The translations under genes and the position numbers were made by a program. 64,000 bases of DNA, taken from assembly GCA_964016885.1 (NCBI GenBank), contig OZ024761.1, forward strand, positions 31,062,001 through 31,126,000, given 5' to 3'. This DNA is from Eledone cirrhosa. Lineage: Eukaryota. The notes beneath the pieces were generated by a model that worked only from the letters and a program-made list of their open reading frames with translations, was not told where the DNA came from and searched no databases. This document shows positions 8,250 to 58,200 of this stretch, piece after piece (the first letter of the stretch is position 1; each line of letters begins with the position of its first letter).

Positions 8250-9690
8250 ATGAATGAATGAAATTATTGTGTACAGTGCTCAGGTGCACTACAACTCGTC
8301 AAAGGTGCATGTATAGTACATAGAATAATATACAAATGTGAGGGAAGTGAATAGTGTATGAGTCATGATATACATGTGTGCGTGTGTATGGAGGGGGAAT
8401 ATTAGGTGTAGTGTTGGCGAATCTCAGGAAGCAAGGAGGTTTTAAAGGATGCAGTGTCTCGACAGCTAACAACTGATGCAGGGAGTTTGTTCCATGGAGG
8501 TTTTAAAGGATGCAGTATCTCGACAGCTAACAACTGATGCAGGGAGTTTGTTCCATGGAGGTTTTAAAGGATGCAGTGTCTCGACAGCTAACAACTGATG
8601 CAGGTAGTTTGTTCCATGGAGGTTTTAAAGGATGCAGTATCTCGACAGCTAACAACTGATGCAGGTAGTTTGTTCCATGCTTCAGCAACTCTGAGTGAAA
8701 AAATATTTCCGAAAGTCATGGGAGCTGTGCTGTTTTCTGACTTTGTGGGCATGCCCACGTGTGTTAGATACATGGAAATCAAAAAGCTGCTCAGGGTTGT
8801 TGTTGGCAAGATGGTTAATAATTTTGTGGGTGGTTACCAAGTCAGTTGCCAGGCGTCGGAGCTTCAATGTATTCATGCCCAGGGAAGCAAGGCGTTCAGA
8901 GTATGGTAGATGCCTGATGGAGGGTATTCGCTTGGTTGCACGTCTCTGAACAGTTTCCAGGTGGTCAATGTTCTGAACAAGATAGGGGTTCCAGACTGGT
9001 GATGCAAATTCTAAGTGTGGCCGCACCATAGCTATATACAGCTTTAAATAGATAGCTAGAGAGTGGCTGACAAAGGTCTTGCTGAGTGATGCTAAGACAC
9101 CTTAGGCCTTCTTGACAATTTTAGAGACGTGCTTCATTCAACTCAAATTGCTGCTGACTGTAATGCCCAGGTCACATTCACAAGAAGACTTCTTGATATT
9201 AGTGTTATGGAGGGAGTATGTGGACGCTGGGTTTTTACTCCCAAAATGCATGGTGGTACACTTGTCCACAGCTAGCTTGAGTTGCCAGTCTGTGATCCAT
9301 TGGTGCATTGTGTCCAAGTCAGATTGCTGGCAAGATTTATAGTGTTCAGGATCTGTCCTTTTTATCTCAAGGTATAGCTTGATGTCATCTGCATATTTCA
9401 GTACTGTGGCATTCTTTAAGTTGGGGGGGGGGGGGGCAAGAACAGATCCCTGTGGTACACCAGATGACATCTCATATGGTGAGGAATGCTGTCCTAGAAC
9501 CGTGACTACCTCTCTTCGACTGAGAATGAAGGGCTTCAACCAGTTAAAAAGATCATCCTTCACACCCATTGCAGAGAGTTTTGCCATAAGTCTTTTGTGT
9601 GGCACAGAATTGAAAGCTTTAGTAAAGTCAAGGTAAACAACATCCACCCATGAGTCGCCATCAGTGATCCGGGTGATGTCTTCAAGAAAC
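8250..9690 (-). mobile_element. 5'-truncated CR1/L2-group LINE (RT C-terminal half, frameshifted) with (ATTC)n tail
   Basis: ORFs 9138-9647 (YLDFTKAFNSVPH, GVPQGSVL, KYADD) and 8682-9029 (VRPHLEFAS.VWNP, VQRRATK, NTRGH); a 61-bp unit occurs about 4 times in tandem at 8437-8680. Confidence 0.9.
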
Positions 9691-10359
9691 TCGATAAGTT
9701 GATCACAGCAGCTGGAGTTATATATAGTTCCACACTGTAAATGTGGTTGGTGTTAGAAAGGGCATCCGGCGGTAAAAAAAAAAACAGTTCCGTTTGAACA
9801 AGGTACAGCATGGTTAACTGGCTTGGCTTGCCTCATAACATGGATGACCCATCTCACCCATGTAAGCAACAGAAAATATGATGCTAAAAACGGCGATGAT
9901 GACACACGCACATATATATATATAAAGGTTTCTACAAGACTAGAACTGTCTCATTTGTATGAAATCATCTCTGGCCTTCTGTGGTTGTTTTTTTTTAATG
10001 AATACTTTACTCCGTCCCTGCACCAACCACTGGATACATCTACGATGGATAACTTACATAATGTTGAGTGCTTTAATTAATTTGTTGCATCATTGTTTAC
10101 CAACTAGAACCACCAGTTCTACTCATTGGTAATCAAACTAACTTAAGTGATATATACATATATGAAGCGAAGTCTATTTATTGTGGTAAATTTAAAGAAA
10201 AAATACACATAATAAATACCAAAATTCTAGTTTAATAAATAGCTTTACTTCTCTATTCAAAAGATACAATTGATAATGTTGAATAAGATAAAATTGTTCA
10301 ATCTCTCTCAGTGTACATGGAGCGGTCCCTTCTTTCTTGTTGGGATAAAATCTCATTAA

Positions 10360-10883: not shown

Positions 10884-11224
10884 GGAGGCACATGGCTTAG
10901 TGGTTAGAGCATTGGCCTTGCAATCGAAAGGTTGTGAGTTCAATTCTCAGACCGGGTGATGTGTTGTTTCCTTGAGCAAGACACTTTATTTCACATTGCT
11001 CCAGTTTACTCAGCTGTAGAAATGAGATGATAGGGACTGGGGTCCCTATCATTCCACTGTAAAGTGGTCGTGGAGGTGCCACGGCATAAAAGCACCCAGC
11101 ACTCACTGTAAATGAGGTTGGTGTTAGGAAGGGCATCCAGCTGTAGAAATCAAGCCAGCATCAGTTCCCGTCCCACCCTTGCAAGCAGGGAAAAGCGGAC
11201 GTAAAATGAAATGATGATGATGAT
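10884..11224 (+). mobile_element. tRNA-derived SINE with RTE-derived 3' tail
   Basis: A box TGGCTTAGTGG and B box GTTCAATTC; tail ggttggtgttaggaagggcatccagctgtagaaa...ggacgtaaaa..(gat)n shared with RTE LINE ends. Confidence 0.85.
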
Positions 11225-11489: not shown

Positions 11490-11525
11490 GTTCTTCAACT
11501 GAAAAATATATACATATATACACAC

Positions 11526-11564
<39 letters not shown>

Positions 11565-11569
11565 TTTTA

Positions 11570-12298
11570 TATGTGGCCGGTGCTTTGGTGCAATAAGTAG
11601 CAGCAAGTGCCCACCGAATACTAGCTCATTCCATTGCACAGATGGTTCTATAGAAATAGTGGACACCTTCCGTTACTTGGGTGACAAAATCAGCAGTGGT
11701 GGAGGGTGCTCTGAAAGTACAGTAGCTAGAGTCAGAACTGGATGGAAAAAGTTCAGAGAGCTTATACCACTATTAGCCGCTAAAGGGTTCTCTCCAAAAA
11801 TGAAAGGCAGGCTGTATGATGCCTGCATACGAACAGCAATGTTACATGGCAGTGAGACCTGGGCATTGTGTGCAGAGGATATACGCAGACTGGAGAGGAA
11901 CGAAGCTTGCATGCTCCGCTGGATGTGTAATAGTAATATACGTGAACGGCAAAGCATAAACGAACTAAGGGAAAAATTAGAAATAAGAGGGATCAGATGT
12001 TGTTTACTCGAGAGAAGACTACGTTGGTATGGTCACGTGATGCGCATGAAAGACAACAGCTGTATAAAAAAGTGCAGGGCAATAAAAATAGACGGTAGCC
12101 ACGGAGTAGGCAGACCCAGAAAAACCTGGGACGACTTGATAAATTCCGACCTCACATGGTTGGTGTCAGGAAGGGCATCCAGCCGTAGAAAACCTGCCAG
12201 ACAGTCCTATACGAGCAGGACAACCAATCTTGCCTCAAATGGGAAAACTCCCGTCCAAACCCATGCAAGCGTGGAAGATGGACGTTAAACGATGATGA
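11570..12298 (+). mobile_element. RTE-clade LINE, C-terminal fragment and tail
   Basis: ORF 11659-12288: FRYLG, MLHGSETW, RRLRWYGHVMRM, GRPRKTW; (gat)n tail. Confidence 0.9.
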
Positions 12299-12409
12299 TA
12301 TATATATATATATATATATATATCCAGGGGGTGTAACTAGGAGTTACTGCAGGTTCACCCAGGAGAGCACTTGATGTTTAGGTTCACTTCTGTGATGAGG
12401 TGTAGAGCT

Positions 12410-14207
12410 ATACAGAGTATATAGCTCTCACAAGCCATTCATCAACACCTAGTTTTCTAAGAGCCCACCAGATAATGGAGCGGGGGACTCTGTCAAAGGC
12501 TTTCTCCAAGTCAACAAAGGCTAAGTATAGGCGTTTACTTTTAGCTAGGTACTTCTCCTGTAGTTGTCGTACAATGAAAAGAGCGTCTGTGGTACTTTTA
12601 CCTGACAAACCCGAACTGCATTTCATCTAGATCAATTCGCTCTCTGATTAGTTGCGCTATTACTTTTTCTGTGACCTTCATGACCTGGTCGATTAATTTA
12701 ATGCCTCTATAGTTTCCCCTATCTAGGGCATCTCCTTTACCCTTGTAGCAGTTAATGATGATGCTGCTACGCCAGTCCTTCGGAACGGCCCCATTCTGTA
12801 TGACTTGGTTTACTATCCGGGTGACCATAGTGTCTCCCACCTTTCCAGATGCTTTCAGCATTTCAGCAACTATTTCCGAAGGCCCAGCCGCCTTACCTGT
12901 CTTCATATCTTTGATTGCCTTACTTATTATACTACCTTCAACTAGCACTGCTGGTCCCTCTATGGGATCGATGTGGGGGAGACTGTCTTTCTCCCATTTA
13001 TTCTCCTCATTTAGTAGCCTTTCGTAGTGACACTTCCAAGCTACCTTCTTATCAGCGTCAGTGATGGCAAGTACACCATCATCATTAAGGACACACTTCT
13101 CCCCGACAATATCACGGTTTTCCTTGACACATTGCCTAGCAATCCTGAACACCTCACGTTGTAGAACATGCTTGAACTTTCTTTCCTCTGCTTCCCTTCT
13201 TGCGAAGTACACTTGTCTCCTAGCTTCCCTCCTGGCCACTTGATAGTTTTCTCTACTTCCCCCATCCCGCCATACTTTCCAAGCCTGCTTTTTGGCCTTA
13301 ATTGACTCCTCCACCTTAATTGACTGTTCCACCACCACGTTACTCTCCTCCTGCCTATAGTCCTGCTCCAGCCACAGACTTCATCTGCCGCCTTCAGCAG
13401 GTTAGCTTTCAGGAATTCCCACTGTTCCTCTATATTGTACGACTCTAATTGCTCTTCCTTACTGTCGAAAGCATCAAGTAATATGCTTTTAAATTTATTA
13501 CTGGCTGTGGGGTCCTTTAGCTTCCATATTTTTCTCCTGAGGATAGTCCTCCTCTGTTGTCGAGTACGTCTTGTCCTGAGACTATGAGGTCGCTGACTAT
13601 GAGTCTATGTTGGGAGGTGCATTCTTCATGGGGGAGGGATTTAGTGTTTAGAACAGACACTCTATCACGTCTTCTGGTAAGGATATAATCTATCTGACTG
13701 GCGTGTTCCCCTGATCTATAGGTGATCAAGTGATTGTCTCGTTTTTTGAAGTTAGTGTTACAGTTAGTTAGGTTATTTGCGTCACAGAATTCCAGGATTC
13801 TGGAGCCTTCCTCATTTCTAGTACCAAACCCATAGCCTCCATGGATTCCATCATAGCCGTCACAACGTGACCATTTAGGTCGGCAGCAATAATTATGTAG
13901 TCACTCTCGGTTATTTGGGAGGTAGTGAGCATCAATGTCTCATAGAATCTGTCTTTTATAGCGCCAGGCAGTCCGGATTGGGGTGCATACGCAGATATTA
14001 CTGTCACAGTAGTTCTATTTAGGACAAGTCTTATTTTAATTATTCTGTCGTTCACTCTATTTACGTCTATTATCTTATCTACACATTTTTCTGCTAACAT
14101 GATTCCTACCCCACCCAGCCCATTGTCATTTCCCACCCAGAAAAGCTTATAGCATCGTTTTTTACCCACAATGAATCTAGCAGACCCACCCCTCCACCTG
14201 GTCTCTT
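12410..14207 (-). mobile_element. RTE-clade LINE, AP-endonuclease and RT N-terminal part (disrupted)
   Basis: QETRW, SAYAPQSG, ADLNGHV, QIDYIL, SQHRL, NYRGIKL, FVDLEKAFDRVPR spread over frameshifted ORFs. Confidence 0.9.
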
Positions 14208-15439: not shown

Positions 15440-17850
15440 TTATAATAATAATGATTTCATTTATTAGCCACAAGGGTCGACATGTAGAGGACAATACAAA
15501 GACAGAGACAGTGGGGGGTTTACAATAAGGTCAAGTAAAAGTGCACAATGGCAAGACTAATTTAACAATGAAGATATAAAAATATAAAATAAACTATGCA
15601 TAAATATAACAAAATAAATTCCCTGATAGGGGTGGGCAGGTCCGTCTGACAGCACTTCCGTGCCTGTAGAGTTTATCCCGAACCGGCAGTGCCCTCCGGT
15701 AGCACTGCCAAGCGAGGGATTTCTGGAAATTGTCCATCGTCCCCGGCTCGAAAGTCCTCCGGTATAGACTGGTCAGTTTGACTTCGTCGAGGCCCAAAGC
15801 TTCTCCGAGTGCGTCATCGCACTTTCCCACCACTAATCCTCTATATAACTCGAGAGTGGAAGTTCTACTGGTCGCATTGCCTGCTTGGTAGAGGGCAGTG
15901 AGTGCCTGGAAACATTCCAGGTGCCAGTCACCCAGTCTCGGTCTCTTCTTGACCCAGGACTGCAGCTCAGTCAAAGAAATGAGCTGTGGAAAGGCCAGTC
16001 TGATAAACGGCGACCACACCTGTTCACTGTTTAGGCAGAATATCTGGAGATGTCACAGCCTCAACGCATGTCTGCTCATCATTAGCCATGGCATGCCCAG
16101 CCCTCCGCATAGAGGGTGCTGGCAGCAGATGGACCGCCTCACCAACGAAACTTGTCCCCTCCACAAGAATTTGAAGAGGAGCTGTTCCAACTTGACGAGG
16201 CGCGAACGGGGGCAAGGCACGACGGTCAGGCGGTAGTAGATGACGGACGTGATGTACGCATTTGCCACCTCCGCACGACCTTTCAGTGATAGCTTCCTCC
16301 CAGCTCATTTTTGGGTGAGACTGGCTACTATGCTCATTACCTCGTCCCAATTCTTTTCCACCTGGAGGTCTGGTCCGAACCAAACCCCGAGCAACTTTAC
16401 CGGTCTGTCCGTCCAGCGCCCCATGACGCTGTTGGACGCCATGGGCTTGCCTCTCCAGGTTCCAAGCTGCAAGCCCACCGACTTTTCCGGGTTAAGTTTG
16501 GCTCTTGTCAACCTTTCATATTCCTTCAATAAGGTGCCGACCACTTCGATTTCTAAGGTGGTCGACACCATCACGGTCATGTCGTCCGCATAAGCTGACA
16601 CCGCCTTTCCACGTCCCGGTTCGAGCGAGATGCCCTGCAACAGCTCCAGCTTCCACAGTAAAGGCTCGAGAGTCAATACGTACAGAAGGGAAGAAAGAGG
16701 GCACCCTTGATGGACCGATCAGGAGAGTCGGAATGGTTCCGAGAGATGGCCATTAACCTTGACCACCGAGCGTGTGCCGCTGTGCATTGCAGCGATCCAG
16801 CTTCTGAAGACAGGGCCGAAGCCAGCTGCTTTGAGGACACACTCCAGATACCGATGGTCGACCCTATCGAATGCTTTCGATTGATCTAAATTGATCAGTA
16901 CCCCACCAAAGCCAGGTTTACACCCTACCCTCTCTATGATGTATCGCATGAGGTGGAGATTGTCATGTATGGACCTGGCTGGGATTGCGCAAGTTTGCTT
17001 CTCCCCAACCAAATCCTCAATGACAAGCGCCAATCTCTTTGCTAACACCTTGGCCAAAATCTTAAACTCTGTGTTGAGCAGAGTTATGGGCCTGAAGTTG
17101 TCTAATGTATCCCTCTTGTTCTCGTCTTTCCTTATCAGGGTCACCACTCCTCTGCTCACAGAACTGGGAATACTCCCATTCTGCTGCCAGTTGCAGTAAA
17201 GTGCTTTGAGGAGATTGGAGAACAAGTCTGGCATATTTATGTAAAGCTCGTAGGGCAGGCCATCCAAACCGGGTGACTTGCGCCTCATGCAGCCGACAAG
17301 GGCGTCCTGAATTTCGGCTGAAGTAATCGGCCTTTCGCAGCGCTCAGCGTCGACCGTCGAGATGCGCGGCAAGCCGTCAAGGTAGGGACTGAAATCCGCT
17401 ACTCTCTCTGACTCGCCACTCTCCTCGAACAACCGAGCAAAGTGCTGGCGAAAGGCCTCACACATCCGCTTGGAATCGCTTATCTCGTGTCCGTCTCGGT
17501 CCGCCAAAGACCGAATTGTGGTTTTATTACCACGTTGCGCCTCCGCCACGCGGGCCCATCGAACAGCTTTTGGTTCCCTCGTTTCTCAGAATGACGGCAA
17601 AAATAATAAAAAGGGGAAACAAAGAATAGGGAAATATAGAGAAAAAAGAGAGAAAGAAAGAAGAACGGGAAGGGGAGAGGATGACAAGAGCTCTGGTGTC
17701 GCAGAAGAGAGGGGAGGGATGGAGGGGAATGATGAGTGGGCTTTGGGCCTAGGGCAAGAGAGCAGAAGTGCTGCGCCCCGTGGACAAGACGGCAACAGCA
17801 TTGACGCGGACGATGGCCCGTGACACCCGCTGCAACAGCCGACTGTTTCA
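15440..17850 (-). mobile_element. L1/Tx1-clade LINE, RT domain to 3' end, frameshifted, endonuclease region missing
   Basis: KSPGLDGLPYELY, FRPITLLNTEFKILAK, LDQSKAFDRVDH, QGCP (plus strand gggcacccttg), AYADD, GGLG; (TAA)-rich tail near 15440. Confidence 0.9.
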
Positions 17851-20593
17851 AAGAGTATCTTATCCTATTTTCTAACGCTATTTCTTAAAATAAATGTACA
17901 TAATATGAAAAATATATCTCCGAATTGAGAGCTCACAGCTCCGATATTACGGGCATGCCGTTAGAATGTCTCGGGAGAGAAAAGCTGGATAGGTTTTACG
18001 GGTAAAACCAACCGGCATGAGACTCAGGAGTAAGACTATAACGACGACTATATTTTTGGATCATCGGAGCTTCGATACATACTAGGAATTGTTTACAATT
18101 TATATTTAAAAACGAGAGAGAGAAAGAGAGAGGAAGAAAGAAGTCACGTACACTCAATCATAACAAAGGCGAGTGGCTGTGAACTAAATAAAAGTTTACA
18201 CCGTTTTTGTTACAGCTAACAATCTAAGTTTGTGAAACCTAGAAATAAAACACACTGCCATTAATAAATAACGGTTCGCACGATAATCAAAGAAAACTCA
18301 CCAACGTTGCCATTATTGAAAGGAACTAGGACGGTTGATTATCAGAATGGCCAGGGTAGCAGATTAACAGAACAACTAGGTCAGCGGTTTAGCATCACGT
18401 GTCATTTATTCTGTTTGTTTGCTAGTTTTACATTTTGAGGATAATTCTGTTTATCACCCCTTCGAAATCGATAAAATAAAATAAAAAACAGTAAATTACT
18501 GAGGGTCAATATAATCGACTTTCTCATCACCCACCAAATTGCTGGTCTTGTACCTATATTAGAAATCATTGTTGAAAGGAGCTTAAAGAAGGAAAACATA
18601 AAAAAAAATAATAATAATTACGAACTTAATTATCTCCCTTGCGCCGTTATCTTTCTGCTCTTTAACCCGCTTTCTAACAAACCATCTTATGATACGAGAC
18701 TCTTCCCCCACTTGAGCCATATCTCATGTCTGAAGATCAATTGTCCCCCACCCCCATACACCTATTTTAACTGACTAAGTACTAATCACGTACTGGGGTC
18801 GATTTAATCAACCAAATTGTTGGTCTTGTCTTATGCCTAAATCAGAAACCATTATTTAAAAAGAATTATCACGGCTGCATCATTTACAAAATAATTTTTG
18901 TAACTAGAATAGGTATTTAAAAAGGGTAAAGAGTGAGAGAAGATCCATCTACACACACAATCACACACCACAACAAAGGGTGCTGAAGTATCCATTTAAT
19001 AGATTTTGATGCAAGCCAACCCAATATATCAGGCATGCCAAACATGCGGCCCTTTACAAGCACACCTGCGGCCCGCACAAAGGTTTTTACAGCGCGAGCA
19101 ATTTTTTTTATCTTTGTAATATAAAATAAAAATAAATGTGTTGTAATGTGAGCAATTTGTTGCCGTGTGTGGGCCTCAGACAACACATATGTAACCCTCG
19201 AGGGACCCTCAGTTTGACACGCCTATCAATTTGTTGTCGACAGCTGATAATTATGAAAGAATTCATTAGTAAGATGTTATAATCATGATGTTTCACATAA
19301 AAATAGAATTCATGGAACTTTATAGATATGTATGCATGGTTCCGTAACTCCTGGAGGAGCCGTAGGAGTGCTGTATTGACACACGGCGTTTTTAGGGCAT
19401 TTATTAAGACCTGGTGAAGTTTGAATACAGAAGATTACTCCCAGAAAAGGATATAAAGGAATAATCGATCCCAGTATTAGACTGGAACTTTTTATCGACC
19501 CTGAATTGAACTCAGAAAGTAGAGAGCTGAAACGAATACCGCAAAGCATTCTACCTGAAGTTCTAACGGCTCTGCCAATTCGCCGCTTTTTATGAATACA
19601 GCACACAAAAATATACAATCAAAGCAGAAAAGAAAAAAAATATCACTAAGTATGTCGGAACCTGCCGCTAATATTTTTTTAGGCAAGCCATCACGTTTGC
19701 AGCATTATCGAGGGTGGTGGCAACTCTAAGACGCTGAAACAACCAAGCACCATCACGGGCATCATCTGACACCTTGGTAAGTTTAACAAAACAGTGATGG
19801 CAGGAATTCTTCGTTATTAATATATTATTATTGTCTGCAGCATAAAGTTAAGGCCCTTTATGATCTGAGTTCAAATCCCGCCGAGGTTAACTTTGCCTTT
19901 CATCCTTACACTGTCGATAAAATAAAGTACCAGTAATGCACTCTGGCCTTGTGCCAAAAGTAGAAACAATTATTATTGTCTGGCAACATGCCGTGCGCAT
20001 AAAGAGAGAAAAAAGTTAGGAGTGTGAGAGAGAACGAAAGGAATAGGGCGTATAGCATATGATAAGAGAGAGAGAAGAAAAATGAATAATAAAGTAAAGT
20101 GGAGGCGCATTGCGTAGTGGTATGGGTGTTGGACTTATGATCATAATGTCGTGGGTTCGATTACTGGGCTGGATTGTGTGTTGTGTTCTTAAGCAAAACA
20201 CTTCATTTCACATTGCTCCAGTATACTCAGTTGAAAATGAGTACCAGTAATAGCTGGGGGTTTAACCCTGGGATGAACAGGCGTTCTGTCCAGGGGGGAG
20301 TCTTGTACTCTCAGTCGCATCACGCCACGAAACCTAGATAAGAGCCTGCCTTCCGGCCTAAGACAGATTTTAGACTAGACCTTTAGAAATGAATCTACAC
20401 TATTTAAAGAATTGTTTTTTTTTTCTCGTACATGAGCACTTAACACAATGATTTTCAGTATTATTATATTTTTGAAAGTAGAAACAATTATTATATTTTT
20501 GTGTTATAAGGTTTCATGAATTCTATCTTATGTGAAACATGATTGTAATATGTTTCTATGTGAAATATGAAATATTTATGAAATTAACTATTG

Positions 20594-20791: not shown

Positions 20792-21249
20792 GTGTATGAT
20801 ATTAAAAATTAAAAAAAATTGAAGAAAGATAATCTAGGGAAGAAACGAGAGTTACCTCCCCTAGCAATATTACGCCATTTGCTTAAATTTTGATGTTTTT
20901 TTCTTTCTATTTACTGAGATTTCAGTTAATTATGAATAACACATAGGAGATGAAATACTTTGATATATATCGTGACTTTTTTTTTGTATAAACAAAATAA
21001 TTAAAGTAATTCTAATCTAGAATTGAAAATACGTCATGGAATATATTGTTTAGAATTTACTGCCAGAAAATGTTTAATTTTAATAAGTTTTATAAGAAAT
21101 ACGACCCCTTTTTAATCTCTTTTGATTTATAAAAATACGGACATATTAATTTTCTCAAATGTGATATATAACGTTCTGTTTCTTTAAAATTTGTTGATGT
21201 ATTAATTATTAATTAATTGCGGGATTATAACTCATGTTTTTCATTCATA

Positions 21250-21366
21250 GCCAATGCCTTATCTATCAACAGTCTTCTCTCACGTGTAAGTTGACCGTGA
21301 CATTATTTTATAATTAAAGTTTTAATTATTCTACATTAATTCACTAGTAATACGGTTGGAACTCAG
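21250..21366 (+). promoter_or_regulatory. Candidate PDX2 promoter and non-coding first exon
   Basis: CCAAT (21251) and CACGTG (21281) in unique sequence followed by donor CAG|gttagt at 21366; matching acceptor tcatttag at 23570, 23 nt before the PDX2 ATG. Confidence 0.3.
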
Positions 21367-22752
21367 GTTAGTGTAAAGTATCTATCTATGTATCTATTTA
21401 TTTATTTATCTCTGTATGTATGTATATATTTTGGGTCATGAAAAGCGAGATGACAGTTTCTATACATTACATAACCCTTCGGGTACTCAACTAGCGGTTT
21501 CGGCTTGTGTCAGCAGACTAAAATCCGAAGAGGGCTCGATAAGGATTATATATATATCAAATATATATAAACCCGTAGAGCAAATATTTATTATAAGAAC
21601 AGATTAAAGTTTAAGCAAATAATCACTGCTTTCACCCTTAACGGGATATATATACATTTAAAAATCGAATTTTGTGGCAATACATTTATTTTCGAATGTG
21701 TTGATGAAATCTAAAAGAAAAGTTTTTTTTTTGTTTATTGTAGTTAATTTTGGTTTTTATTTTTCGCAATTCATAATTGTAGAAATGGGATTACGTTCCT
21801 TAAATTAGGAGGCATGGTGGAAAAAAAATTCCTAGTTTACGTTTAGCTTACTACTGTAAGGGTGTTTGCTTATTCCAGCGTCTTAGTATCGCTATCACTT
21901 TGTCATAACGTATTATCAAGCATTTCTGAATTGGAGTGGGGATGGGATAAATTTGGTCAATTTAGCTGTAGTCATTAGTTTAGCTGTTATTATCAAATAT
22001 CAACCAAGATATAAAAAACTTCGATATGCGATAAACACGACATACATAAATTGTAGCGCACACACATAGATGTGTGTTTTGTCAGCTGTCCGCGAGAATG
22101 CTTGGTTATTCCAGTACCTTTATATATATATATATATATATATCAGTCCAGTACGGGGTCAATTCTTCCTCTATATATCTTTCTCGCTTCTTCTCAGGAA
22201 GAAATCAGCTGTGTATAGACCTGGAAGGGTTAAAAGCTCCACCAGGTTTTTAAAAACATCCTAAGACATTCCATATTGTCACTACAGCTGTGTATAGACC
22301 TGGAAAGGGTTAAGGGCTCCACCAGGTTTTTAAAAACTTCGTAAGACATTCCATATTGTCACTACAGCGTCCCTACAACTCCACCTGTAATGTAACCTTC
22401 TAAAAGACATGTTATGTGAAAAGATTTATTACAAATAACCTAGAACCGTCTGTCAAGACGATATACTAAAATATTATAACGCTTTCACTCGTGGTAGTGC
22501 TGCCAGGGTTTTGGCTTACCTAAAACATTATTAGAGGAAGGCTCCAGCACCCCTTGTTGTGGTGTGCTGCTCTTTTTTCTTCTTTCGTGTTCCCCTCATT
22601 CACCACCTCCTTTTTAAAAATATAAATGTTTAACGGATTAAGTCTAAAATCATTGAATGCTTGTAATATACACACACACACACACACACATATATACACA
22701 CACACACATATATATATATACACACACACACATATAGACACACACACACATA

Positions 22753-23096
22753 TCATCATTTTTCATCATTTCATTTTACGTCCACTTTTCCCTGCTTGCA
22801 AGGGTGGGACGGGAACTGATTCTGGCTTGATTTCTACAGCTGGATGCCCTTCCTAACACCAACCTCATTTACAGTGAGTGCTGGGTGCTTTTTTGCCGTG
22901 GCACCTCCACGACCACTTTGCAGTGGAATGATATGGACCCCAGTCCCTATCATCTCATTTCTACAGCTGAGTAAACTGGAGCAATGTGAAATAAAGTGTC
23001 TTGCTCAAGGAAACAACACATCACCCAGTCTGAGAATTGAACTCACAACCTTTCGATTGCAAGGTCAATGCTCTAACCACTAAGCCATGTGCCTCC
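22753..23096 (-). mobile_element. tRNA-derived SINE, same family as 10884-11224
   Basis: Near-identical reverse complement. Confidence 0.85.
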
Positions 23097-23127
23097 ATAT
23101 AATATATATATATATATATATATATTA

Positions 23128-23313
23128 TAATTGTTTCTACTTTTGGCACAAGGCCAGCAATTATCCCAGTGCATTACTGGTACTTTATTTTATCGACCCC
23201 GTAAGGATGAAAGGCAAAGTTAACCTCGGCGGGATTTGAACTCGGAATGGCAAGGGCCGTAACTCTATGCGTCAAAGCATGGCATCCGACCCTCTACCGA
23301 TACTGCCAACCCA
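23128..23313 (-). mobile_element. Second tRNA-derived SINE family (octopus-type)
   Basis: atcgaccccgtaaggatgaaaggcaaagttaacctcggcgggatttgaactc motif; further copies near 19845, 24760, 25130, 40000, 40570, 46960, 59810. Confidence 0.75.
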
Positions 23314-23593
23314 CCTTTTATAATAAGCATGGACGAAGTGTCAAATTTTTATTGCGTGATGAAATTTTGACACTGCATCGAGTGCTCACTTTGGTGAACC
23401 AACAGTAACTTGATGTTACAATAAGTATACTGGAACAACGTGAAATGAAGTGTTTTGCTCAAGAACACACCATGCCCAGGAATCGAACCTATGACATTAT
23501 GATCGTAAGTCCAACGCTCTTACCACGTGCATCCACCCTCTTTATATAATTATATTTATCTATCATTTAGAGAACCAAACAAAAAACAAGAAA

Positions 23594-23941
23594 ATGGATG
23601 GAGAACATGGAAATCAAATATATATTGGAATTTTAGAAATTCAAGGTGGTTTTTCTGAACATAAAGCTGCTCTGATGAAAGCTGCAAAAGATATGGGAAT
23701 TGAGGCTATGTTAGAAATTTATTCTGTACGTAAAGCTGAAGATCTGCATTCTAAACTGTGTGGTTTGGTAATCCCTGGAGGTGAAAGTACAACAATGGGT
23801 CTCTTTATAACACGTAACCAAATGGTTGATGCTCTACAAGACTGGGTCAAAGATGAAAAACATATCGTTTGGGGAACCTGTGCTGGCCTTATCATGTTGG
23901 CAAATCAATCTGAGAAGCAGAAAATTGGTGGCCAGTCTTTG
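23594..23941 (+). CDS. PDX2: Pyridoxal 5'-phosphate synthase glutaminase subunit PDX2/SNO, coding exon 1 (116 codons)
   Basis: IGILEIQGGFSEH, LVIPGGESTT, WGTCAGLIMLA (catalytic Cys); donor TTG|gtaagt, phase 0. Confidence 0.93.
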
Positions 23942-24074
23942 GTAAGTTCTTGAAATTTAGCTTTTTCTTATTATAAGCAGGGTAGCAGTAACTCTTGTAA
24001 AGTGGTTGAGACAACTTAGGGTAGAGAGGATCCTTTGGTTCTGTCAAGGACTTAGTCTCTTTATTGGGGCCCAC

Positions 24075-24600
24075 AATAAAATGTACCAAGTATATTCTGT
24101 AATGTAGTTGGAGATTGAATTGAGATAGTATGGAGTAGAACAAACTCTTTAATCTTTCTAGTGTTGGTGCCACTTTAAATTGCACCTAGTACACTCTGTA
24201 ATGTGGCTGGAGATCGAATGGAGGCAATATTGAAGAGATAAGACTCTTCAGTCTTGTTGAATACATAACAATCTCCTTAGTGCTGGTGTTATGATAAAAT
24301 GCACCCAGTGCACTCTGTAAAGTGGTTGGTGATCTAGCAAAATAGGGTAGAAAAGACTCTTTAGTTTGGCTGAATGCATGACCACCTCTTTAGTGAGGGT
24401 GCCATGATAAAATGCACTCAGTACTCTCTGTAAAATGGTTGATGATCAAACAAACAATATAGTGTGGAGCAGACTCTTCAGTCATGTTGAGTGCATGACA
24501 ACCTCTCCAGTGCTGGTGTTATGATAAAATGCACCCAGTACACCCTGTAAAGTGGTTGGCATTGGAAAAGACATCCAGCCACAGAAACCATGGCAAAATG
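24075..24600 (+). repeat. About 5 diverged tandem copies of a 110-120 bp unit in the PDX2 intron
   Basis: Recurring ataaaatgcacccagtacactctgtaaagtggttgg...agactcttcagtc; resembles the RTE/SINE tail. Confidence 0.7.
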
Positions 24601-24918
24601 TTTTCTGACCTGTCTAGTCTCAGACTGTGATTTATTAAAATGCTAGATTATGTTGTAAAAATACAGATTTATACATTATTGATATTACTTTGACCATAGT
24701 AATAATGCTTTTTAATCTAGGAAGAAGGTCAACAGTTTGTGGGAAGTGAAAGTCAATTAAATCGACCCCAGTGCATTACTGGTGCTTTATTTTATCAACC
24801 CTGTAAGGATGAAAGGCAAAGTAACCTCAGCGGGATTTGAACTCAGAATGTAAAGGGATGTAGCTATAAGCTGCAAAGCATGTTGTCTGAAGTTCTACCA
24901 ATACTGCCAATCCACAGC

Positions 24919-25078
24919 CATTTTTATTATTATTGGGGTCGATTTAACTGACTTTCCCCTCCCCCCAAAATTGTTGACCTTATGCCTAAATACTGATTTC
25001 TGATTTAGGCATAAGGTCAACAATTTTGGGGGGAGGGGAAAGTCAGTTAAATCGACCCCAATAATAATAAAAATGGTT
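24919..25078. repeat. Near-perfect palindrome (about 73-bp arms) of SINE-tail sequence
   Basis: ccatttttattattattggggtcgatttaac...gcctaaat / atttaggc...gttaaatcgaccccaataataataaaaatgg. Confidence 0.9.
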
Positions 25079-25314
25079 TCTGATTTAAGCACCAGGACAG
25101 CAATTTTAGGGGAGGGGAAAGTCGATTAAATTGACCACAGTGCATGACTCGTACTTTATTTTATCGAAGGATGAAAGGCAAAGCTAACCTCGACAGGATT
25201 TGAACTCAGAATGTAAAGTGACATAACTATATGTCGCAAAGCATGTTGTCTGACACTCTACCGATACTGCCAATCGACGGCCCTAAATAATAATAATAAT
25301 TCAGGGTACATTAC

Positions 25315-27593
25315 ATAGAGACCAAGAGGGAAGCTAGGCGACAAGTATACTTAGCTAGGAGGGAAGCAGAGGATAGAAAATTCAAGCATGTTTTGCAACG
25401 TGAGGACCAGAAACAGGAGGTGTTCAAGATTGCGAGGCAGTGTGTAGGAGAGAATTGTGATGTCATTGGAGAGAAGTGTATCCGGAATGATAAAGGTGAG
25501 CTTGCCCTCACAAGTGCTGAGAAGAAAGATGCATGGAAGAGCCATTATGATAGATTACTAAATGAGAAGAATGCATGGGAAGAAGAGACCCTACCCCAAG
25601 TAGACCCTATAGAGGGGCCAGCAGTACAAGTCAGCAGCAGCTTAGTAAGTAAGGCAATCAGAGATATGAAGATGGGGAAGGCAACCGGTCCATTGGGTAT
25701 AGCTGCCGAGATGCTGAAGGCATCTGGGTCTGTAGGTCACACTATAACCACACGTATTGTTAACCAGGTAATACTAGAAGGTGTCATACCAAAAGATTGG
25801 TGCAGTAGCATGATTGTCAACTGCTACAAAGGTAAAGGTGATGCACTAGATAGAGGAAACTATAGAGGTATAAAGCTGATGGACCAGGTCATGAAAGTAA
25901 CAGAAAGAGTTATAGCACAGTTGATTAGGGACCGGGTGAAACTAGATGAGATGCAATTTGGGTTTGTACCAGGAAGAGGCACCACTGATGCCCTCTTCCT
26001 TGTGAGGCAGTTACAGGAAAAGTACCTAGCTAAAAGTAAGTCACTCTACCTGGCATTCGTCGATCTCAAGAAAGCTTTTGACAGAGTTCCACGTGCTATA
26101 ATCTGGTGGGCTCTTAGAAAACTAGGAGTAGATGAATGGCTTGTAAAAGCTGTACAAGCCATGTATAGGGGAGCAGTCAGCAAAGTTAGGATTAGCAATG
26201 AGTATAGCGAGGAATTTAGCGTACAGGTTGGTGTCCACCAGGACTCTGTTCTTAGCCCTCTCCTGTTCATCATAGTCCTGCAGGCAATAACAGAGGAGTT
26301 TAAGACCGGATGCCCATGGGAACTCCTATATGCAGATGACCTCGCACTTATAGCTGAATCTATGGTAGAACTAGAGAAGAAATTCCAAACTTGGAAGCAG
26401 GGACTAGAAAGAAAGGGTCTCAAAGTCAACATGACAAAGACTAATGTCATTGTAAGTAGACGAGAAAACAGAACCCAGATCCCCTCAGGGAAATGGCCTT
26501 GCTCAGTATGTAGGAAAGGTGTAGGTAGGAACTCCATTCTCTGCCCCAAATGCAAACAATGGGTACACAAGAGATGTAGCGGGATCTCAGGAAGCTTAAT
26601 TAAGAATGTAGGCTTCACATGTAGCAGCTGTGCTGGGGCAGCAAACAGCCACATGAAACAAGTACCACCATTCTCTGGGAGGGCTCTGTAGAAACAGTAG
26701 ACAGCTTCTGCTACCTAGGTGACCGAATTAGCAGCGGAGGTGGGTGTTCAGAAAGTACAATAACTAGGGTAAGAACGGGATGGAAGAAGTTCAGGGAACT
26801 ACTGCCACTGCTAGCTGCAAAAGGCTTCTCCCTCAAAATGAAAGGCAGACTGTATGATGCGTGTATCCGAACAGCAATGTTACATGGTAGTGAGACCTGG
26901 GCGCTGAAGATGGAAGACTTACGTAGATTAGAGAGAAACGAAGCCTGTATGCTCTGATGGATGTGTAATAGTAATATATGCGAACGGCAAAGCATAAATG
27001 AATTGAGAGAGAGACTGAGCATAAGAGGAATCAAGTGCTGTGTGCAGGAGAGGCAGTTGTGTTGGTATGGACATGTGATGCGTATGAAGGATGACAGCTG
27101 CATAAAAAGGTGCAGAGCACTAGAAGTCAATGGAAACCGCGGAGTGGGGAGATCCAAGAAGACCTAGGATGAGGTGATAAAAGCTGACCTTACCCAATTA
27201 CACCTCTCAAAGGTGATGACACAGGACCGAGACCTCTGGCGTCACGCAGTAATACAGAGTACCCGACCTCCCATGGGTACAAGCTGAAGCATATAGACAA
27301 TATGCCGCCAAACCCTCCCACTGCAAAGTGGTCGTGGAGGTGCCACGGCAAAAAAGCACCCAGCCCACACTGTAAAGTGGACGTGGAGGCGCCACGGAAA
27401 AAAAGCACCCAGCACTCACTGTAAATGAGGTTGGTGTTAGGAAGGGCATCCAGCTGTAGAAATCAAGCCAGAATCAGTTCCTGTATGAGCAAGGCATGGT
27501 CAGCCGACCAGACACTGCTCACAACAGGACAACCCGTCTAACCCATGCTAGCATGGAAGAACGGACGTAAAACGGTGATGATGATGATGATGA
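25315..27593 (+). mobile_element. 5'-truncated RTE-clade LINE inside the PDX2 intron
   Basis: ORF 25393-26691 with RT motifs (NYRGIKL, FVDLKKAFDRVPR, VHQDSVLSP, LLYADD) and a Cys-rich region; frameshifted C-terminus; (GAT)n tail. Confidence 0.95.
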
Positions 27594-27644
27594 ATTCCTG
27601 TGATATAGAGCTAGCAAATATAATCCTAGTTTATATGATTTCAG

Positions 27645-27983
27645 ATTGGTGGACTTGATGTTGTGGTTTCCCGAAACTATTTTGGTCGACAAGTGAACAG
27701 TTTCCAAGGAAAGGTAAAAATTGTGGAGAAGGACCTTTTCAAAGAAAACACACCTAGTTATTGCGAAGGTGTCTTTATCCGTGCCCCTGCAGTTATTAAA
27801 GTAAATAGCCCTGAGGTTTCCACTCTTGCTGTCCTGCCACATTCTTTGAAAGAAAAGTCTGACACCATCGTAGCTGTGAAACAGAAAAACATTATAGGTA
27901 CAGCTTTCCACCCGGAGCTAACCGAAGATCTGCGGTGGCATGAATATTTCCTGAAGGTTGTCCTCTCGGCACAGAATCACTGA
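27645..27983 (+). CDS. PDX2: PDX2/SNO coding exon 2 (112 aa + stop)
   Basis: Acceptor gatttcag|ATT; IGGLDVVVSRNYFGRQVNSF, GVFIRAP, GTAFHPELTED (catalytic His and Glu); in phase with exon 1. Confidence 0.93.
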   Translation: MGGLDVVVSRNYFGRQVNSFQGKVKIVEKDLFKENTPSYCEGVFIRAPAVIKVNSPEVSTLAVLPHSLKEKSDTIVAVKQKNIIGTAFHPELTEDLRWHEYFLKVVLSAQNH

Positions 27984-28329
27984 TACTTGTTTCATTACAA
28001 CGTTGATTGTGATATTTTCAATGTGTGCTGATTGATATCAAAATTTACAACACTATCAACATCAACAAGAGTTTTAAGGCCATTTTTTCCCTGCTGAAGC
28101 AAGGGTTAGTTTTGTGGACCCTTTAACAAGGAGGTAAATATTTTACGGCTGGATGCCCTTCTTGGCACCAACCTTTTTATTTGCCTCATGATACACAGGA
28201 ATAGAGTGTACCTATTATATACCGTATACACACTCAATACAACAACAAAATATATATTAATATAAACAGACATTGTTTATATAAAGCTGATCTGTCGAAC
28301 TTTTACGAAACGCTGAGGACATAAAGTTA

Positions 28330-28942
28330 ATATAAAGAGTGGTGTGCTCATGCACAGAGATGTTATAAAATAGCTGATAAAAGAGGGTGAAGATCCTTAA
28401 AGATGGAAAAAGAAGTTATTGGCTGCTACAAGGAATCGAACCTCATATCTCCCTAATATCGGGTATAAAATTACTCTATATGTACTATTATATTTTGACG
28501 GTAAAGGCTTTGTTTCACATAATTATCTCACATAATATAGAATCTATGAGATTTTGATGTTATTTATTTTGAGAACAATACCTTAACATCAATACGAGTG
28601 GCTAGTTACAGCCGGTTTGAACAGAAAGAGGTGAAAGAATTCTGGCTGGATATGGCCGGTTTAAATGCTAAAGGGTTAAGGTGAAGACCCTTAAAGATAG
28701 AAAAAGAAGTTGCCATTGGCTGTTATAAAGACTCAAACCTCATCTCCCAGATATCGGGTCAGCAGTTGAACCATTAATCTAAATGATTCAAAGCACCAAG
28801 CTGGTATGTGGAAGATATGAGGTTTGGTTTCTCAGAAGCTGATGGCAACTTCTTTTTCCATCTTTGAGGGTTTTCACCCAATTTTATAAGCTATTTCACA
28901 GCATCTTCGTGCATGAGTAATGAGTGCACCATACTTTATATT
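28330..28942. mobile_element. Fold-back element (about 120-bp imperfect arms) with nested piggyBac-like MITE fragment
   Basis: ataaagagtggtg..ctcatgcac...aagatggaaaaagaagtt versus aacttctttttccatct...gtgcatgag...caccatactttat. Confidence 0.65.
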
Positions 28943-39412: not shown

Positions 39413-39444
39413 TTAAAAAAAAAAAAAATGAAACAGCAACATAC

Positions 39445-39821
39445 CTTTGACTGGATATCATCTGATTTATACACCGATGTCATAGCATCTTCATAAGTTG
39501 GTAAGGAAGAAGAATCTCCCAGAGTTTGGTGAGAAGAGTAGCTTAAGTTGTTCTTGATATTACTATTTGGTTTGTCGGCTGATTGATATGAAACCGTAGA
39601 GAAAAGACTATCAGTCTGGGAAAAAGCACTATCGGTGGAAACACTGCGATCGATTCCTTTGTGCTGGTCGCTGGAATCATCATCGTCATCGGACGAAGAA
39701 GAATCGGACGAAAATTCAGATTTTGAGGCCAAATTTGGTAAACTTCCAACGGTGCTAACCATCGCTAACGATGCAAACTCACTGAGAGCTTTTAACGCCA
39801 GACTGCTTCGTTTTCGTTTTT
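39445..39821 (-). CDS. HVCN1: Hv proton channel, Ser/Asp-rich C-terminal exon (377 nt)
   Basis: Acceptor atattttag, phase 1 start (G+AA=E KRKRSS...), ends DDIQSK|gtatgt; contains SLPTYEDA. Confidence 0.75.
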
Positions 39822-40420
39822 CTAAAATATCCAGAGTAGAGCAAGTAACATCAGAGTAATAGAAATTATTTACAAACTGAATCACGTTCCATTATGCCTC
39901 CTTTCCCTTGTAAGCTAAACCTCTTAAATTATTCATTGATTATTTTTGGGAAACTCATAAATTTTTTATTATTACATAAGGTCATCACTAGCGCGGTGGA
40001 TTAGCAGTATCGGTAGAGGGTCGGACGCCATGCTTTGCAGCAAAGAGTTACGGCCCTTGCCATTCTGAGTTCAAATCCCGCCGAGGTTAACTTTGCCTTT
40101 CATCCTTACGGGGTCGATAAAATAAAGTACCAGTAATACACTGGGTAATTGCTGGCCTTGTGCCAAAAGTAGAAACAATTATTACATAAGGTCATGAATC
40201 TTAGGTAATGATCGAAAGAATACGATCGCGAATACACTGAGCCAAAATGGGATTCCTCCAAAGGGTCTATGGAGTAACGTTACTCGATAGAGTGCATAGA
40301 TCAAAGAGTCATTCCAGGTAGAGCCGCTTCTTTTTCGGATTGAGAGATCACAGCTGCGATACTATAGGCATGTGGTTAGAATGTCTCAGGAAAGAATCAC
40401 TGGACAGATTTTACGGGAAA

Positions 40421-40730
40421 AATATCCAGAGTAGAGCAAGTAACATCAGAGTAATAGAAATTATTTACAAACTGAATCACGTTCCATTATGCCTCCTTAA
40501 ATTATTCATTGATTATTTTGGGGAAACTCATACATTTTTTATTATTACATAAGGTCATCACTAGGGCGGTGGATTAGCAGTATCGGTAGAGGGTCGGACG
40601 CCATGCTTTGCAGCAAAGAGTTACGGCCCTTGCCATTCTGAGTTCAAATCCCGCCGAGGTCAACTTTTCCTTTCATCCTTACGGGGTCGATAAAATAAAG
40701 TACCAGTAATACACTGGGTAATTGCTGGCC
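40421..40730. repeat. Local duplication of 39825-40157 (intron 3' end and SINE)
   Basis: aaatatccagagtagagcaagtaacatcagag...aattgctggcc present twice. Confidence 0.9.
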
Positions 40731-57344: not shown

Positions 57345-57559
57345 AGAAAGTGAACAACACAATATATAACTGTCATCAGACAGAGATGTTATAACATCTC
57401 TCTCTGATGAACGATCCAGACGTATATTAATATTGTCTACGATCCAGAAACCTAAATAAACATAAACTCAATATTAAGATAGTAGAAAGACCAGGTACCT
57501 CCGTAAAAACACTTATTAGCAAGACATACCCTTTTCAAAGACCCTCATGTATAGATAAG

Positions 57560-58200
57560 AAATGCATAACCTGTAAAATAAGCCCCCATATTAACTGTAA
57601 AACTAGAAATGTAGTCTATAGCATAAGATGTACTGAAGGACAATGTAGAGACAAAAATATAGTGTACATAGGTGAGACAGCTCGTAGTGTAGGGGAACGG
57701 ATAAATGAACACTGGCGAGACCTTCAAGATAATAAAGAATCATCTGTACTCTACCAACATGCTAAAATAGAACACAAGGGTAAATTAGAGAACATAGAAA
57801 TAAAAATAGAATCTACACAGAGAAAAGACGCAATGTTTAGACAAATTACAGAGGCAATAAACATAAAAGAATTACAACCAAAATTAAATAGAAAATATGA
57901 GTGGAACAGCAACATCACAACTTACAATTAAGGACAAAATGAAAACACACACACACATAGAACAAACAACCAACCAGTAACATGTAAATAAACAAATAAA
58001 TAAATGAACATAAACACACACAGACACCCGGATGTGGCGCATGCGCAGACTGAGCACACAACACACACACACAAACAAAATGGCGTAGGACAGAACAAAG
58101 GAGAGGCACAGAAACAAAGAAAGGAATCCCCAGTCACCGAAGAGGTCACAGAGTGTGTGACGAAAGAACTATGACTATATATAAACAACTATCTGGTTGT
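57560..58200 (+). mobile_element. Penelope-like element 3' part: GIY-YIG endonuclease and hammerhead-bearing pseudo-LTR
   Basis: CKTRNVVYSIRC...YIGETARSVGERINEH...EAINIKELQPKLN (57662-57931 and upstream), followed by a hammerhead motif at 58132-58176. Confidence 0.85.
58132..58176 (+). ncRNA. Hammerhead-like motif (CCGAAGA core variant) downstream of the GIY-YIG ORF
   Basis: agtca-CCGAAGA-ggtcacagagtgtgtgac-GAAA-GAAC-TA-tgact. Confidence 0.6.

Follow-up and report, generated by a model that had tools for sequence, protein, structure and literature searches.

A spliced PDX2 gene in Eledone cirrhosa

The window examined here, a 64,000-nucleotide (64-kb) stretch of the genome of the octopod Eledone cirrhosa (GenBank assembly GCA_964016885.1, contig OZ024761.1, positions 31,062,001 to 31,126,000 of the forward strand), contains an intact, spliced gene of the PDX2/PdxT (SNO) family, the glutaminase subunit of pyridoxal 5′-phosphate (PLP) synthase. 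On the plus strand, the reading frame begins with an ATG at 23594 and its stop codon ends at 27983, and the two coding exons (23594–23941 and 27645–27983; 348 and 339 nucleotides, nt) together encode a protein of 228 amino acids (aa) with no internal stop. They are separated by a 3,703-bp phase-0 intron with GT-AG borders, the donor being TTG/GTAAGT at 23941/23942 and the acceptor TTTCAG/ATT at 27644/27645. Contigs from four public runs (X1–X4), of which X4 is a different sample from the same study, were compared with positions 22800–28800; they convey neither strand nor expression level. The gene and its surroundings are laid out as follows.

20900..22100, no strand assigned: stretch not depleted in CpG (observed/expected 1.23, the window as a whole having 0.55), candidate promoter and candidate site of a 5′ exon
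23571..23941, plus strand: PDX2 exon with codons 1–116, including Q17, E22, E64 and the nucleophile C96 (profiles; X4 transcript piece 23569–23940, zero mismatches); acceptor AG at 23569–23570, alternative AG at 23571–23572
23942..27644, plus strand: phase-0 GT-AG intron of 3,703 bp (sequence; removed in X4 record 25)
27645..27983, plus strand: last coding exon, codons 117–228 and stop, including R126, R131, R162 and the catalytic H205 and E207 (profiles, alignment)
27984..28556, plus strand: 3′ untranslated region, extending to 28556 or beyond (X4 record 25 piece 27644–28556, zero mismatches); neither AATAAA nor ATTAAA occurs within 27984–28700

Membership of the PDX2/PdxT family is far beyond chance. 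All six PDX2 motifs are present (QGGFSEH at protein position 17, PGGEST at 61, GTCAG at 94, RNYFGRQ at 126, FIRAP at 160 and FHPE at 204), and the exons match complementary halves of the Pfam SNO profile PF01174, 1–90 (E value 5e-22) and 96–186 (E 3e-22), each scoring 79 bits against a Pfam cut-off of 27. With TIGR03800 the gene was scored exon by exon, at 76 and 87 bits, each below a cut-off (105.55) that is set for the whole protein; three full-length orthologs score 161–173 bits (170 in Octopus bimaculoides). Other class I amidotransferases (HisH, CobQ and GuaA) gave 16–31 bits, far under their own cut-offs, and all 12 solved-structure matches of the Octopus sinensis ortholog are Pdx2/PdxT/YaaE or amidotransferase structures. 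An earlier note on this DNA, made from the letters alone, had described an intact 228-aa PDX2 with all the family hallmarks, and the open frame, the motifs and the PF01174 matches bear that description out.

The residues on which catalysis depends in characterized enzymes are conserved. The window protein retains all 53 of the columns in which 13 animal orthologs (12 with names, one without) do not vary, the triad C96, H205 and E207 aligns with B. subtilis PdxT C79, H170 and E172, and the gate residues E64 (of PGGEST) and R162 (of FIRAP) align with B. subtilis E48 and R135. Their equivalents in Plasmodium Pdx2, E53 and R154, are required for glutaminase activity, according to a passage of PMC2266796. 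Of six Staphylococcus aureus Pdx2 residues named at the Pdx1 interface in a passage of PMC11237949, four are identical here (E14, E47, R106 and E125, the E125 column being variable). The Pdx1-Pdx2 complexes of Bacillus subtilis, Thermotoga, Plasmodium and Staphylococcus (PDB 2NV2, 2ISS, 4ADS and 8U7J) contain a class I glutamine amidotransferase with the same triad and ammonia-gate residues, and B. subtilis PdxT is identical to the window protein at 75 of 196 positions. Unlike microbial pdxT, the octopod gene has an intron, lacks linkage to the synthase gene and encodes ~30 extra residues in loop insertions.

Removal of the intron is seen in a public contig. Record 25 of X4 (1,386 nt) joins window positions 23569–23940 (its letters 102–473) to 27644–28556 (letters 474–1386) with zero mismatches, and its junction is the predicted splice, offset by one shared G. 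This exactly spliced form is present in one of the four runs, and run X4 is most likely RNA. In X1–X3, contigs extend from exon into intron with zero mismatches, at an exon depth of ~8–14 among the contig pieces listed. That the spliced contig derives from a processed retrocopy is unlikely, given the zero mismatches to the exons and, among the pieces listed, the exon-intron contigs at single-copy depth in X1–X3.

The first 101 letters of the X4 record lie outside 22800–28800 and join the gene at the AG at 23569–23570, and therefore at least one further exon lies upstream, making at least three in total. Thus, the two-exon gene of the earlier note stands as to both coding exons and the GT-AG splice between them, while a further 5′ exon had been overlooked. 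Because the frame is open from this acceptor to the ATG at 23594, and because the O. sinensis and O. vulgaris models have an N-terminus 21 aa longer than the 228-aa protein, the true start of PDX2 may lie upstream of 23594, in which case the 228-aa form would be slightly short. A search upstream of 23594 with the N-termini of orthologs gave no match. As a speculative location for the 5′ exon we point to the stretch at 20900–22100 and its candidate donor AG/GTTAGT at 21366/21367, one of 77 upstream AG/GT sites and joint fifth among them by a simple donor score; a strong donor at 19777 was rejected because the join requires an exon ending in AG.

The intron and its chromosomal setting

Repeats make up most of the intron, 2,826 of its 3,703 bases matching elsewhere in the window. 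Those recognized are listed here.

24071..24558, no strand assigned: degenerate tandem copies of a high-copy repeat of ~100–120 bp (self-matches 72–78%; summed depth 4e4–7e4 in X1–X3)
24696..24919, minus strand: tRNA-type copy resembling a short interspersed element (SINE), A-box-like sequence at 24909, B box at 24842
24918..25076, no strand assigned: near-perfect palindrome of 159 bp between the two SINE-like copies (96% self reverse-complement match)
25064..25282, minus strand: second SINE-like copy, A-box-like sequence at 25272, B box at 25205
25300..27193, plus strand: 5′-truncated long interspersed element (LINE), reverse transcriptase (RT) domain with YADD (PF00078, E 1e-30), then a PHD-type finger (PF00628, E 8e-7)
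27171..27594, plus strand: repeat 3′ tail ending in (GAT)n, present in many copies across the window, 89% to 331–755, with short matches of 91–100% at 11054, 14746 and 22809

More copies of the SINE-like element at 24696..24919 lie at 23165–23314, 39993–40145 and 40565–40718, among other sites; a scan of the 64 kb with ARAGORN gave no tRNA gene. The LINE carries a frame shift near 26625–26691 and has copies of 75–77% at 11641–13235; it is putatively of the RTE class. LINEs of this class are described in octopus in a passage of PMC9115989. Over the intron repeats the contig depth in X1–X3 is ~1e4–1e6, versus ~8–14 over the exons, and the repeats would represent passive insertions of host elements. 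The LINE and SINE content of the intron may be particular to this locus. Because a spliceosomal intron full of host repeats is combined with single-copy exon depth in three runs, the evidence points to a chromosomal PDX2 gene and not to contamination, which is what the earlier note had argued from the host repeats that fill the GT-AG intron.

Other broken LINE copies, mostly on the minus strand, occupy 8685–9752, 11500–13900 and 15600–17600, with RT domains at 9141–9752 and 16308–17585. A fragment of a GIY-YIG endonuclease on the plus strand at 57431–57928 (PF01541, E 6e-5) is presumably a piece of a Penelope-like element. On the minus strand, 39440–39800 holds an exon-like Ser/Asp-rich frame that ends at a GT after ...DDIQSK and has no Pfam match; it is possibly an exon of a convergent neighbouring gene.

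Relatives of the gene and its descent

Among cephalopods the gene has one-to-one orthologs. The window protein is 88% identical, over 228 aa, to PDX2 of O. sinensis (XP_029657998.1), whose cluster also includes O. vulgaris (CAI9740693.1, likewise 88%) and O. bimaculoides (XP_014787260.1, a model of equal length, 228 aa), and it is 76% identical to the protein of Argonauta hians (GAB1608193.1) and 69% to that of Acanthosepion pharaonis (CAE1238243.1). Identity is 51% to a scallop protein and 49% to that of Nematostella, and the PDX2/PdxT-like proteins of bivalves and cnidarians (Ylistrum, Argopecten, Tegillarca, Nematostella, Actinia, Dendronephthya and Xenia) show 45–53% identity overall, with the same triad and, as argued below, probably the same intron position. 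Orthologs are already labelled PDX2/PdxT or glutaminase at NCBI in three Octopus species, and PDX2/PdxT labels are found in Argonauta, one cuttlefish, bivalves including scallops, and sea anemones. What is new is therefore the species, E. cirrhosa; orthologs had been annotated before in octopuses, bivalves and anthozoans.

In a maximum-likelihood tree of 45 proteins, rooted arbitrarily, the E. cirrhosa protein is sister to the three Octopus proteins (97/95); the cephalopod group that contains them has support of 100/99 and the mollusc group 95/91. A branch with support of 100/96 places all named animals on one side, together with nine unnamed rows, and bacteria, fungi, Diplonema, Monosiga and giant-virus copies on the other.

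The position of the intron provides a second, indirect line of evidence. There were 32 matches shorter than 175 aa; 11 had their ends at other places and were set aside, and 21 were examined at the junction. In 18 of these the similarity stops at the exon junction of the window gene and the next residue is Val, as in the window itself, as read-through of a phase-0 GT donor would give; among the remaining three, two have Caldilinea-type bacteria as their closest relatives and the third is ambiguous. The nearest relatives of the 18 include a cuttlefish protein (81%), a Tegillarca cluster, Actinia (46–66%) and octocorals (71–99% to that clade). This pattern indicates that cephalopod, bivalve and anthozoan relatives probably have an intron at the same site, one older than the cnidarian-bilaterian split. 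An intron of that age, taken together with a tree that follows animal phylogeny, suggests that PDX2 was likely retained vertically from the cnidarian-bilaterian ancestor and not transferred, and the phylogeny that the earlier note had proposed for deciding between the two comes down on the side of vertical descent.

Horizontal acquisition does have a precedent in the SNZ and SNO genes of the nematode Heterodera glycines, which are also animal genes for de novo vitamin B6 synthesis but reportedly were acquired horizontally (so the cited title of Craig et al. 2008), whereas the gene described here looks vertical. Transferred B6 genes of that nematode are cited in a passage of PMC5664098, and a placozoan endosymbiont with pdxS/pdxT appears in a passage of PMC6879607. 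Nevertheless, it is exceedingly improbable that the E. cirrhosa gene was acquired from a microbe or reflects contamination: it has a spliceosomal intron with host repeats and single-copy depth in three runs, its tree matches mollusc phylogeny, its intron position is common with anthozoans, and its product is 69–88% identical to cephalopod proteins versus 50% or less to the non-animal or unnamed matches listed. A transfer after the cnidarian-bilaterian split is largely refuted, although an ancient transfer into the animal stem may have taken place.

The PDX1 partner and vitamin B6 synthesis

A gene for the synthase subunit PDX1 was sought in the window with two profiles. One made from 52 PdxS proteins gave a best E of 3.1 over 2,803 six-frame segments of the 64 kb, and one made from nine eukaryote-type PDX1 proteins a best E of 3.2, while a control PdxT profile in the same search found both PDX2 exons (E < 1e-28). 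PDX2 thus has no PDX1 neighbour for 23.5 kb on its upstream side or 36 kb on its downstream side, and the window holds no linked pair of the kind seen in bacterial pdxST; the earlier note had likewise seen no PDX1 exon here, unlike the linked SNZ/SNO pairs of yeast. The SNZ and SNO genes of the sponge Suberites domuncula (Seack et al. 2001) are also animal genes of the deoxyxylulose 5-phosphate (DXP)-independent B6 pathway. They are reportedly linked head to head, whereas PDX2 in the window has no PDX1 neighbour.

Database searches for PDX1 were seeded with B. subtilis PdxS, metagenome loci and giant-virus contigs. B. subtilis PdxS matches 66 of 80 metagenome loci, none of them recognized as animal. 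In one set of 120 listed matches the names are only those of bacteria, oomycetes and protist transcriptomes; among the best 120 of 233 in another they are mostly fungi, with an amoeba, a dinoflagellate, Monosiga and one barley-labelled record, and neither set names an animal. A further listing of at least 150 rows carries no names. No animal name came up in cluster look-ups (10 clusters in one of them), the clusters obtained from atlas searches were bacterial or unrecorded, and the terms PDX1 and SNZ had no match in the readable supplements of PMC13402157, PMC9712504, PMC6635378, PMC4199593 and PMC9115989. Four unnamed PDX1 proteins from short contigs (P0437, P0443, P0453 and P0529) form a clade (100/99), and two of them pass both PdxS cut-offs. 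This clade seems to resemble the sponge protein and may represent the PDX1 family of animals, though no name confirms an animal origin.

Several other arrangements of these genes were met in the course of the searches. In two giant-virus contigs (L085, 2324–3807; L086, 2355–3807) PDX2 and PDX1 are neighbours, with a sugar-aminotransferase-like frame next to them; the viral PDX1 ends at ~275 aa, and ~60 metagenome proteins are similar. An unnamed protein of 525 aa (P0311) appears to combine an N-terminal PDX2 with a C-terminal PDX1 in a single chain. On a Prevotella-like contig (L083), pdxS-pdxT directly follows a gene at 1860–2828 in which a ThiD-like kinase domain is joined to an AraC-like tail.

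We consider it probable that the locus holds an intact, single-copy and vertically inherited PDX2 whose product is the predicted glutaminase subunit of PLP synthase, acting together with a PDX1 likely encoded elsewhere in the genome. The presence of such a partner is itself highly probable, since a PDX2 that is inactive alone would hardly stay so conserved. Some or all of the octopod's vitamin B6 would then be of its own making, and de novo synthesis by a full PLP synthase is likely. Gene structure, splicing, catalytic triad and orthology are observed, while the partner, the activity and its physiological weight are what we infer, since the window lacks PDX1 and the matches listed include none from a named animal.

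Certain observations weigh against this reading. Resolution is poor in the deep part of the tree, where Monosiga falls outside the animal group. The shared intron position was read from protein read-through and not from DNA, and run X4, which belongs to the same study as X1–X3, has no record as RNA. Named animal PDX1 is absent among the database matches listed, a weak negative given that the seeds were non-animal. At the interface described in PMC11237949, S. aureus Y58 is replaced by N, in a column that is variable across animals, and at the position of S. aureus E112 (residue 137 of the window protein) each of the seven cephalopod rows has Gln instead of the Glu found in bivalves, cnidarians, Monosiga and bacteria.

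The absence of PDX1 from the window and of a named animal PDX1 from the matches listed, together with this cephalopod-wide Glu-to-Gln change at one interface position, would fit an orphan PDX2, octopods having lost PDX1 and kept PDX2 as a stand-alone glutaminase or as the partner of another synthase. Such an outcome seems improbable, however, as the glutaminase activity of Plasmodium Pdx2 depends entirely on Pdx1 (in a passage of PMC2266796), most of the interface and gate residues are kept here, the pathway is reported for sponges in PMC7954711, and the clade of four unnamed PDX1 proteins may be the animal one. A stronger form, in which cephalopod PDX2 has been uncoupled from B6 synthesis by loss of PDX1 and, with a lineage-wide change at its contact surface, is maintained by strong selection to serve a new partner or to act as a free glutaminase, strikes us as equally doubtful; if true, it would be a role unknown for the PDX2 family. 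Slightly less unlikely is that PDX1 and PDX2 are both present but provide a minor supply of B6, in embryos or as a supplement under stress or for antioxidant purposes, with the diet still needed. Octopods are carnivores and obtain B6 in their food, and contig depth gives no expression level. Most animals depend on dietary B6, according to passages of two reviews (PMC6071262 and PMC6253932), which state that most animals lack the pathway. Against a minor supply stand the strong conservation of PDX2 and the depletion of CpG in the gene body (observed/expected 0.04 in the unique part of the intron and 0.24 in the first coding exon), which, going by patterns known from invertebrates, would fit a broadly expressed gene with a methylated body.

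A literature search whose coverage left out most subscription journals found no paper on cephalopod B6 synthesis, and no activity assay of any cephalopod PDX2 appears in the literature found. Reviews state that animals, or most animals, are unable to make B6, with sponges the sole named exception; 'some sponges' are listed with the DXP-independent pathway in PMC7954711, which cites Seack et al. (2001) for them and Tanaka et al. (2005) on gain and loss of B6 genes. Tanaka et al. reportedly found the genes in Ciona and several losses in animals. PLP synthase is placed from 'archaea to metazoans' in PMC11237949. The gene is already annotated in public databases, and it is real and under-appreciated. 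That a predatory cephalopod has an intact, spliced PDX2 whose intron is apparently shared with corals and anemones supports the idea of B6 synthesis as an ancestral trait of animals, with independent losses in the lineages that have been studied well. Should a PDX1 partner be confirmed, octopuses would have no strict dietary need for vitamin B6, which would bear on the formulation of aquaculture feeds and on the supply of PLP to a large nervous system.

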